Shown: positions 51,659 to 52,725 of the stretch, piece after piece
How positions within the stretch are numbered: position 1 is the stretch's first letter
How the letters are laid out: the number at the start of each line of letters is the position of its first letter
Assembly: GCA_963826115.1 (NCBI GenBank)
Contig: CAWGVS010000002.1
Location: 64,001-128,000, forward strand
Length of the DNA stretch: 64,000 nt
Source of the DNA: an uncultured Candidatus Rokubacteria bacterium
GTDB taxonomy: Bacteria > Methylomirabilota > Methylomirabilia > Rokubacteriales > DASRDR01
Direction: 5' to 3'
The notes under the pieces: model-generated
Seen by the model: the letters and a program-made list of their open reading frames with translations, nothing else
Database searches by the model: none
Told to the model about the DNA's origin: nothing
Made by a program: the position numbers and the translations under genes

Positions 51659-52651
51659 CTAGGCCTCGAAGGCGCGCTCGCGCTGGGCCCGGAGCCGCTC
51701 GAGCTCGGCCGCGTCGAGGCGCATGCCGAGGGACAGGTTCATGTCCGTCAGGATCGTCTTGATCTCGTTGAGCGACTTCTTGCCGAAGTTCTTGGTCTTC
51801 AGGAGCTCGGCCTCGCTCTTCTGCACGAGGTCCGCGATCGTGCGGATGTTCGCCGTCTTGAGGCAGTTGTAGGCGCGCACCGAGAGCTCGAGCTCATCCA
51901 CGCTCCGGAAGAGGTTCTCGTTCAGCTCGAGGCTGATCTCGGTCTTCGGGTCCTCCTCGGACTCGAGACCGGTCGGGAAGCGGCAGAGAAGGTTGAAGTG
52001 GTCCTCCAGGATGAGGGCCGCCTCGCCGACCGCGTCCTCGGGCGACACGCTGCCGTTCGTCCAGAGCTCGAGCACCAGCCGCTCGGCGCCCGGCTTCCGC
52101 TTGGCGGGCTCCACCTGGAAGTTCACCTTCTTGACGGGGGAGAAGTCTGCGTCCATCGCGAGCGCGTTGATGGACAGCGTCTCCGACTCCACCTTGTCCG
52201 CGGGCACGTAGCCGCGCCCCTTCTCGACGTGGACCTCCATCTCGAGGGTCACGTCGCGCTCGAGCGTGGCGAGCGGCTGCTCCGGGTTGAGGATCACGAG
52301 GTCGTGGTCCGTCTCGAAGTCGCTGGCCTTGGCGACGGCCGGCCCGGTCACCCGCAGGCGGATCAGGCGGCTCCGCTCCCCGTGGAGCTTGAAGACCACC
52401 CTCCGGAGGCTGGACAGGATGTCGAGGGAGTCCTCGGTGGCGCCCGTGAGGAAGGAGAACTCGTGGAGCACCCCGTCGATCTTGATCCACGTCGGAGCCG
52501 CGCCCTCGATCGAGGACAGGAGCACCCGGCGGAACGCGTTGCCGACGGTCAGGGCGAAGCCGGGCTCGAAGGGCTCGACCACGAACACGCCGTGATCGGG
52601 CTGGACCTCCTGCCACTCGTGCTTGCGGGGAAGCTGGATCGCGGTGGTCAT
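51659..52651 (-). CDS. rpoA: RNA polymerase alpha subunit, stand-alone divergent copy
   Basis: [73 protein letters not shown]. Confidence 0.96.
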
Positions 52652-52696
52652 GAAACCTCCTCAAGTGACACTGGGCGGGGTCAGGGACGAACGCAC

Positions 52697-52725
52697 ATTA
52701 TAGCGGAGGCTCTCGCGGTGGGGAA
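52697..52725 (-). promoter_or_regulatory. Own sigma70 promoter of rpoA
   Basis: Perfect TATAAT (52697-52702, minus strand) with weak TTCCCC -35 at 17 bp. Confidence 0.65.

Follow-up and report, generated by a model that had tools for sequence, protein, structure and literature searches.

The stretch of DNA analysed here (the window) comprises 64,000 nucleotides of an uncultured Candidatus Rokubacteria bacterium (contig CAWGVS010000002.1 of assembly GCA_963826115.1, positions 64,001 to 128,000; G000:C2:64001-128000 in our numbering). On its minus strand it contains a gene for the α subunit of RNA polymerase (RNAP), rpoA, which is located away from the ribosomal protein operon. A second, shorter rpoA is located in that operon on the same contig; the products of the orphan and the operon gene are referred to as αL and αS, respectively. 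Textbook bacterial RNAP contains an α homodimer with two flexibly tethered C-terminal domains (CTDs). The two paralogues described here have lost complementary sets of conserved residues from the N-terminal domain (NTD), and αS has no CTD; the pair probably works as a heterodimer of αL with αS. The whole analysis is computational, and all genomes are metagenome-assembled. The features of the orphan gene and its upstream region, in window positions, are as follows.

51659..52651, minus strand: orphan rpoA (αL), stop codon included; 330 residues, with NTD, linker and CTD
51968..52651, minus strand: N-terminal assembly/dimerisation domain of αL, residues 1-228 (PF01193 at residues 26-219, PF01000 at residues 56-171)
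51716..51931, minus strand: CTD of αL, residues 241-312, canonical (PF03118 at 1.1e-26)
52662..52656, minus strand: Shine-Dalgarno sequence GAGGAGG, 4 nt 5' of the αL ATG; the GGAGG core is kept in 16/16 orthologue loci of family f1
52697..52726, minus strand: putative αL promoter from aligned upstream regions, TTCCCC/CTTCCC, a spacer of 17-18 nt, and TATAAT
52752..52780, plus strand: divergent mltG promoter TTGACA-17-TAGAAT, 11/12 consensus matches (0.1 expected in shuffles)

A profile search finds the Pfam domains RNA_pol_L, RNA_pol_A_bac and RNA_pol_A_CTD in αL, with the NTD matched by PF01193 at 1e-19 and by PF01000 at 1.7e-26. The protein scores above the NCBIfam equivalog cut-offs (377.5 bits against 302 for NF003513 and 324.3 against 227.8 for TIGR02027). 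It is a divergent member of the RpoA family, since R33, G36, K86, R191, G193, T196, D197 and Y198 (Escherichia coli K-12 RpoA numbering), which are near-invariant in the canonical NTD, are all replaced or deleted in the orphan clade. The gene is flanked by comEC (48731-51643, plus strand) and mltG (52821-53930, plus strand), the latter transcribed divergently, and none of rpsM, rpsK, rpsD and rplQ is found near it in the window. The TATAAT hexamer is located at 52702..52697 (minus strand) with TTCCCC 17 nt upstream. In the aligned upstream regions of family f1, one column reads TATAAT in 16/16 orthologue loci, and a CTT.C element is also kept in all 16. A consensus promoter scanner missed the αL promoter because its -35 element matches at just three of six positions; the sole call there is the divergent mltG promoter, and the assignment for αL is based on the conservation in f1. 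Taken with the open reading frame and the Pfam matches, the 16/16 signals bear out the original prediction, made from the sequence letters, of a full-length rpoA with its own Shine-Dalgarno sequence and TATAAT between comEC and mltG, away from the ribosomal operon. The near-consensus σ70-type promoter of mltG is itself kept across f1 and stands back to back with the αL promoter in the common intergenic region. No public RNA sequencing run was listed as containing the segment 50500-54000; the only matches were two of small share (0.06 and 0.05), both from one study.

The second rpoA (G000:C2:212237-212986) is located on the same 240-kb contig, about 96 kb from αL and outside the window, in the order rpsM-rpsK-rpsD-rpoA-rplQ. 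The orphan, for which a partner in the rpsD-rpoA-rplQ operon had been conjectured, is thus not the sole copy. αS has 249 residues and matches PF01193 (8.2e-19) and PF01000 (5.8e-18); PF03118 has no match in it. Its TGA overlaps the ATG of rplQ, leaving no space for a CTD. Over the NTD, αL and αS are 37% identical, and αS falls under the TIGR02027 cut-off (210.4 against 227.8). A whole-genome search at E<=1 gives a single PF03118 match, the CTD of αL.

The genome contains one rpoC. A match to TIGR02013 on contig C8 was considered as a second rpoB and rejected, as C8:1-3367 overlaps G000:C2:236752-240121 at 93.6% identity. At this level of nucleotide identity, the sequence with which C8 begins, the 5' part of rpoB, duplicates that with which C2 ends. 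Strain variation or a break in the assembly is the probable cause, and such an overlap fits the contamination of 5.3% estimated for the genome. The match to the rpoC model at G000:C2:231556-235532 (minus strand) is broken up: its final segments are in other frames, and one segment contains a TGA. A frameshift or an error of assembly close to the 3' end of the gene, or an insertion specific to the lineage, may account for this.

The distribution of the two genes was surveyed with TIGR02027 in 151 genomes of the class with a completeness of at least 85%, 105 from the same order (Methylomirabilota, "Rokubacteria") and 46 from sister orders. In the order, 90 of the 105 genomes have at least two matches, 13 have one and two have none. 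The sister orders show one match in 40 of 46 genomes, at least two in five, and none in one. These matches are not strict copy numbers (the second match of genome G020, for example, is on a contaminant contig), and the counts take in five unpublished genomes (G038, G063, G089, G090 and G125), of which the conclusions are independent. The sister-order genes score 375-407 bits and the copies of the order about 295-335. The genome of the window belongs to family f1. Both α types recur in 41 genomes of the order, spread over families f1 to f5, with the following lengths.

Orphan copy, 29 loci: 330-336 residues
Operon copy, 18 f1 loci: 247-255 residues, CTD absent
Operon copy, f4 locus: 237 residues, CTD absent
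Operon copy, f2 (nine loci), f5 and f3: 325-328 residues, full length
Single rpoA, sister orders: 332-354 residues

The operon copy has rpsK/rpsD on one side and rplQ on the other in 30/30 loci, with its frame intact in 29 of them. In 27 of 29 loci from three families, the orphan copy and mltG are transcribed divergently (26/28 without the unpublished G038); the other two loci are at contig ends.

Several loci in the survey deserve separate comment. In the G013 assembly, the operon α runs in frame into L17 (402 residues; L015, G013:C6:147508-151230) and the orphan α is split into pieces with stop codons (L154, G013:C6:51000-56500); both are probably indel errors of the assembly and not biology. 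A CTD-bearing α in the f1 genome G020 (L160, G020:C358, 2637 bases) was considered as an exception within f1 and rejected, the contig being read as a contaminant, most likely from another phylum. This α is canonical, 49-53% identical to α subunits of Nitrospira, Myxococcota and the sister orders, and the L17 that follows it is 57% identical to that of the window genome, as compared to 76-81% within f1. A sister-order genome of family f12 (L149, G086:C3:119000-130000) contains two full-length rpoA genes 4 kb apart, at 3048-4101 and 7017-8025 of the locus, both on the minus strand. The 336-residue copy is in rpsD-rpoA-rplQ, and the 351-residue copy, which sits on a very long branch (0.73), comes after an rpsK-like gene; the pair looks like an independent duplication. 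A contig labelled Verrucomicrobiia (L072, DATJFY010000114.1) carries an orphan-type α that is 64% identical to αL, and its label or binning is probably wrong.

To compare the NTDs, 29 orphan, 29 operon and 28 canonical α sequences (13 from sister orders, 14 from other phyla and E. coli K-12) were aligned, and the columns with a canonical consensus of at least 75% were scored. Both paralogues keep 43 of the conserved columns and both are changed at 11. The orphan alone has lost the consensus at positions 43, 83, 86, 191, 193, 196, 197 and 198, with 192 deleted, and the operon copy alone at 35, 50, 57, 66, 67, 68, 69, 81, 118 and 223. Four positions illustrate the pattern.

H66: canonical 28/28, orphan 29/29, operon 1/29
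K86: canonical K in 27/28, orphan R in 29/29, operon K in 28/29
D197: canonical 26/28, orphan 0/29, operon 29/29
R45: canonical 28/28, orphan 29/29, operon 29/29

The corresponding positions in the αL gene, assigned from the alignment, are given below.

52526..52528, minus strand: αL Arg42, equivalent to E. coli R45, the β-binding arginine; retained
52454..52468, minus strand: αL LHEFS, residues 62-66, equivalent to E. coli 65-69, a β-protected segment; the orphan has kept it, the operon copy has not
52403..52405, minus strand: αL Arg83, equivalent to E. coli K86, a β'-binding determinant; K to R
52085..52105, minus strand: remodelled, shortened hairpin turn of αL, residues 183-189, equivalent to E. 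coli 190-198

The largest change in the orphan is in the 191-198 loop, where residues 192-193 are deleted in 27-28 of the 29 rows and R191, T196, D197 and Y198 are replaced; the same hairpin is near-invariant in canonical α subunits and kept in 29/29 operon copies. At the dimer interface, αS has F35Y in 29/29 rows and A, V, I or L at S50; αL keeps F35 and S50. The original prediction had listed R45, LHE and GRGY as retained and a loop two residues shorter with R191 and T196 lost, all of which the alignment reproduces. Its other claims fared less evenly. R33 is indeed replaced by P in the orphan, but the change is not specific to it, as the operon paralogue has K. H37 does not count as a loss, because it is not conserved in the canonical relatives. 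G36 is replaced by A in both paralogues, and N84 by S in part of the orphan clade only, 59% of the orphan rows having N. The single-copy rpoA genes found in sister orders of the class do not have the substitutions of the orphan.

The landmarks for these losses come from E. coli. In PMC3294249, residues 30-55 and 65-75 of α are described as protected by β, and 175-185 and 195-210 by β'; β' binding is sensitive to K86, to V173 and to insertions at 180 and 200, and β binding to R45. The hairpin 186-201 rearranges in the α of E. coli that occupies the β'-associated position (α-II), bringing its surface to β', as described in PMC13202282. Set against these landmarks, the complementary losses indicate that the orphan has shed β'-side features and the operon copy β-side features. 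By this comparison αL keeps the predicted β-side assembly determinants and a canonical CTD and has lost the β'-side ones, and αS keeps the predicted β'-side determinants and has lost the otherwise invariant HEF. An α-I-type subunit (the β-associated position) that has lost α-II features had been proposed for the orphan. The changes at K86 and 191-198 in the orphan and at H66, E67, F68, S69, F35 and S50 in the operon copy, along with the published landmarks (PMC3294249, PMC13202282), agree with it.

The CTDs differ as strongly between the two genes. In the orphan, E261, R265, N268, C269, K291, G296, K298 and S299 are present in 29/29 rows, and the identity to the canonical CTD consensus is 76%, close to the average of 79% for the canonical sequences themselves; the CTD had been described as near consensus, and is. 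The operon CTD of the f2 type (10 rows) is only 48% identical to this consensus. It keeps R265, G296, K298 and S299 in 10/10 rows, with E261, C269, K291 and the basic residue at 297 largely lost (E in 7/10). The operon gene ends at the close of the acidic linker in f1 and f4. As it is only in these two families that the operon copy has no CTD, one α-CTD per polymerase would be expected there.

The two genes were placed in a quick tree of 72 rows and an LG+C20+F+G4 tree of 43 rows, which give the same picture. Support is 100/100 for the orphan clade, 100/99 for the operon clade and 100/99 for a grouping of both that excludes all other sequences; the stems of the orphan and operon sister clades are 0.23-0.43. 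These stems, along with the lower TIGR02027 scores of the order, point to acceleration of both copies, the pattern also described for Francisella (PMC3294249). In approximately unbiased (AU) tests, a topology grouping the operon copies with the sister-order singles to the exclusion of the orphan is rejected (p 0.0006), and one clade of orphan, operon and sister-order singles is not (p 0.12). Eight derived residues rare in canonical α subunits are common to both paralogues, for example Trp at positions 16 and 58 (29/29 rows each). We favour a duplication of rpoA within the lineage, at or near the base of the "Rokubacteria" order, followed by subfunctionalisation of the copies.

Selection was measured as the ratio of nonsynonymous to synonymous substitution rates (dN/dS; Nei-Gojobori, within-genus pairs). 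For αL the value is 0.065 at full length (66 pairs), 0.057 in the NTD and 0.032 in the CTD; for αS it is 0.192 at full length (78 pairs), 0.176 in the NTD and 0.457 in the acidic tail. In family f2, the orphan CTD gives 0.062 and the operon CTD 0.207. Both copies are under purifying selection and neither is decaying, with the orphan more constrained; selection on its orthologues had been one of the points on which the original prediction turned.

The single genome of family f3 (G022, 73% complete) is informative for the order of changes. Its operon-type α has the shared derived residues of the lineage, retains HEFS, K86, an intact hairpin and a canonical CTD, and is the only operon-type α with HEFS. 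No orphan α was found in this genome at its 73% completeness, including upstream of its mltG, and f3 is the only lineage in which none was detected. Loss of the β-side motif is therefore confined to lineages with an orphan. Family f3 may have lost the orphan or may have diverged before it arose; the second course is disfavoured at an AU p of 0.027, in a post hoc grouping with one incomplete genome. The G022 mltG (L164, G022:C406:5683-9702) is preceded on the same strand by ruvX- and purA-like open reading frames, named by eye; this suggests a different arrangement, possibly the ancestral one.

These data suggest an order of events in which duplication was followed by NTD specialisation, then by relaxation of the β'-side CTD, and then by deletion of this CTD. 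The stages appear to be living today. One α would serve both roles in f3, f2 and f5 have two full-length subunits with one CTD degenerating, and f1 and f4 have the CTD deleted.

From these patterns we infer that αL and αS form an oriented heterodimer that would nucleate core assembly, and we regard the heterodimer as likely. αL would take the β-associated α-I position and αS the β'-associated α-II position, although we hold this orientation with less confidence than the pairing itself. In f1 and f4 the holoenzyme would have a single α-CTD, tethered to the β-side α. We lean, somewhat more cautiously, towards an RNAP that in f1 is naturally asymmetric, with exactly one α-CTD and an obligate heterodimer in which the β-side α is full length and the β'-side α has no CTD, a bacterial and independently evolved counterpart of Rpb3/Rpb11.

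An alternative is that the cell makes two polymerases, with αL and αS homodimers each assembling with the single β/β' pair. One enzyme would bear CTDs and respond to activators, the other would have none, and the two would be used under different conditions. The separate contexts of the genes, one with its own conserved TATAAT and the other in the ribosomal protein operon, would suit such an arrangement, as would R45 in both copies and the canonical F35 and S50 of the orphan. However, each copy lacks residues that 26-28 of 28 canonical α subunits have in common, and the losses are on opposite determinant sets, so that a homodimer of either copy would miss one set at one position. The dimer interface of αS is also altered, with F35Y in 29/29 rows and hydrophobic residues at S50, and the sole operon-type α with both determinant sets is that of the lineage without a detected orphan (G022). 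We consider two polymerases improbable.

We judge it equally unlikely that the αL homodimer is the only functional core α, with the operon copy decaying or repurposed as an assembly chaperone or as a translation regulator of the ribosomal protein operon. αL does evolve more slowly (dN/dS 0.065 against 0.192), exceeds the equivalog cut-offs and has the sole CTD, and αS scores below the TIGR02027 cut-off (210.4 against 227.8). Against this, αS is kept in the operon in 30/30 loci with an intact frame in 29 and is under purifying selection. It conserves the 191-198 hairpin in 29/29, K86 in 28/29 and R45 in 29/29 rows, and it is αL that has lost the near-invariant hairpin. That the orphan is a relocated sole rpoA, a horizontally acquired foreign α or a binning artefact, for which its position outside the operon was the sole hint and nothing is left after testing, is hardly credible given the second rpoA 96 kb away on the same contig, the sister-clade relationship with its eight shared derived residues, the AU p of 0.0006 against a foreign orphan, and the place beside mltG kept in 27/29 loci of three families.

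Several points weigh against the oriented αL/αS heterodimer or reduce the force of the evidence for it. K86R and K200R are conservative changes, and where several lost columns fall in the same loop they should not be counted as separate events. With R45 present in both paralogues (α2 of Francisella has Q42), β binding by either is conceivable, and αL homodimers are likewise conceivable because the orphan has the canonical F35 and S50 at the dimer interface. The orientation is less certain because the landmarks are from E. coli and the interfaces vary between lineages, as stated in PMC13202282. The trees and the AU tests share a long-branch risk, both paralogues having long stems. The window genome has the estimated contamination of 5.3% and, like all the others, was assembled from a metagenome.

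Interface prediction adds little. It was run with two αL NTDs and one αS NTD, αS being the scored partner, and gave an ipSAE (interaction prediction score from aligned errors) of 0.53 (runs 0.49-0.55) as compared to 0.00 for the best of three controls. The runs share at least 70% of contacts, and the predicted local distance difference test (pLDDT) of the partner is at least 81. In the calibration, 58 of 80 solved complexes attain the mark for this score, as do 2 of 110 mismatched pairs; among those reaching it, values of 0.60 or below are found for just 7 of the 80 solved complexes and for both passing mismatches. This arrangement of chains is not like that of the calibration, and the model may have memorised α dimers of known structure. 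We regard the outcome as weak support, which does not discriminate between a heterodimer and a homodimer.

To our knowledge, Francisella is the only characterised exception to the α homodimer, and both of its α subunits keep their CTDs. An α1/α2 heterodimer was shown biochemically for the Francisella RNAP (Mukhamedyarov et al. 2011, PMC3294249), and the residue statements made here on Francisella are from the text of that paper. The likeness is close. The two rpoA genes of Francisella differ from each other, one being part of the ribosomal operon and the other located elsewhere; they arose from a lineage-specific duplication with both copies accelerated and with complementary loss of β and β' determinants, which implies an oriented heterodimer (PMC3294249). 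The differences are in taxonomic breadth (a gammaproteobacterial genus there, a whole order of Methylomirabilota here) and in the roles of the copies, as the operon copy α1 is the β binder in Francisella (PMC3294249) and the operon copy looks β'-side here. The Francisella α2 has Q at the position of R45 (PMC3294249), whereas R45 is in both copies here. In Francisella neither subunit is truncated (323 and 317 residues in PDB 6wmp, chains A and B), unlike the f1/f4 partner without a CTD. The Francisella heterodimer was demonstrated in biochemical experiments, whereas the present pair is a prediction from sequences.

Chloroflexus and Streptomyces avermitilis also have more than one rpoA per genome. 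According to PMC3294249, their copies have no drastic substitutions in the dimerisation or β/β' regions and are maybe functionally equivalent, whereas both copies described here have lost near-invariant residues. The archaeal and eukaryotic Rpo3/Rpo11 pair (Rpb3/Rpb11, AC40/AC19) is likewise an asymmetric α-like heterodimer of a larger and a smaller subunit, and the larger one bears the R45-equivalent surface towards the β-like subunit (PMC3294249). That pair arose independently and much earlier; Rpo11 has no insert domain, whereas αS keeps PF01000, neither archaeal subunit has an α-CTD, and assembly needs Rpo10 and Rpo12. Engineered E. coli RNAP resembles the proposed pair in having two non-equivalent α subunits, with an R45A α confined to the β' side (PMC13202282). 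These are laboratory constructs, whereas here there are two natural genes conserved across a family. Oriented E. coli enzymes have reportedly also been made with a single α-CTD on a defined protomer.

A literature search for rpoA or RNAP α in Rokubacteria or Methylomirabilota, judged partly by title, found no report of an α pair, and the papers that it retrieved on two rpoA genes concern Francisella. As far as this search shows, the natural partner without a CTD and the order-wide spread are new, with Francisella as precedent.

The order consists of widespread, uncultivated soil and groundwater bacteria. The assumption that rpoA is a single-copy marker is broken in it, and the operon copy in addition falls below the TIGR02027 cut-off. 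If the proposed single-CTD enzyme of f1 is correct, these bacteria, which are abundant in soil, would read UP elements and recruit activators through one CTD. If the heterodimer is confirmed, the order would provide a second, independent natural test of how α paralogues subfunctionalise for β and β', and a natural single-CTD polymerase with which to ask what the second CTD is for; its graded series of relatives would record the successive steps.

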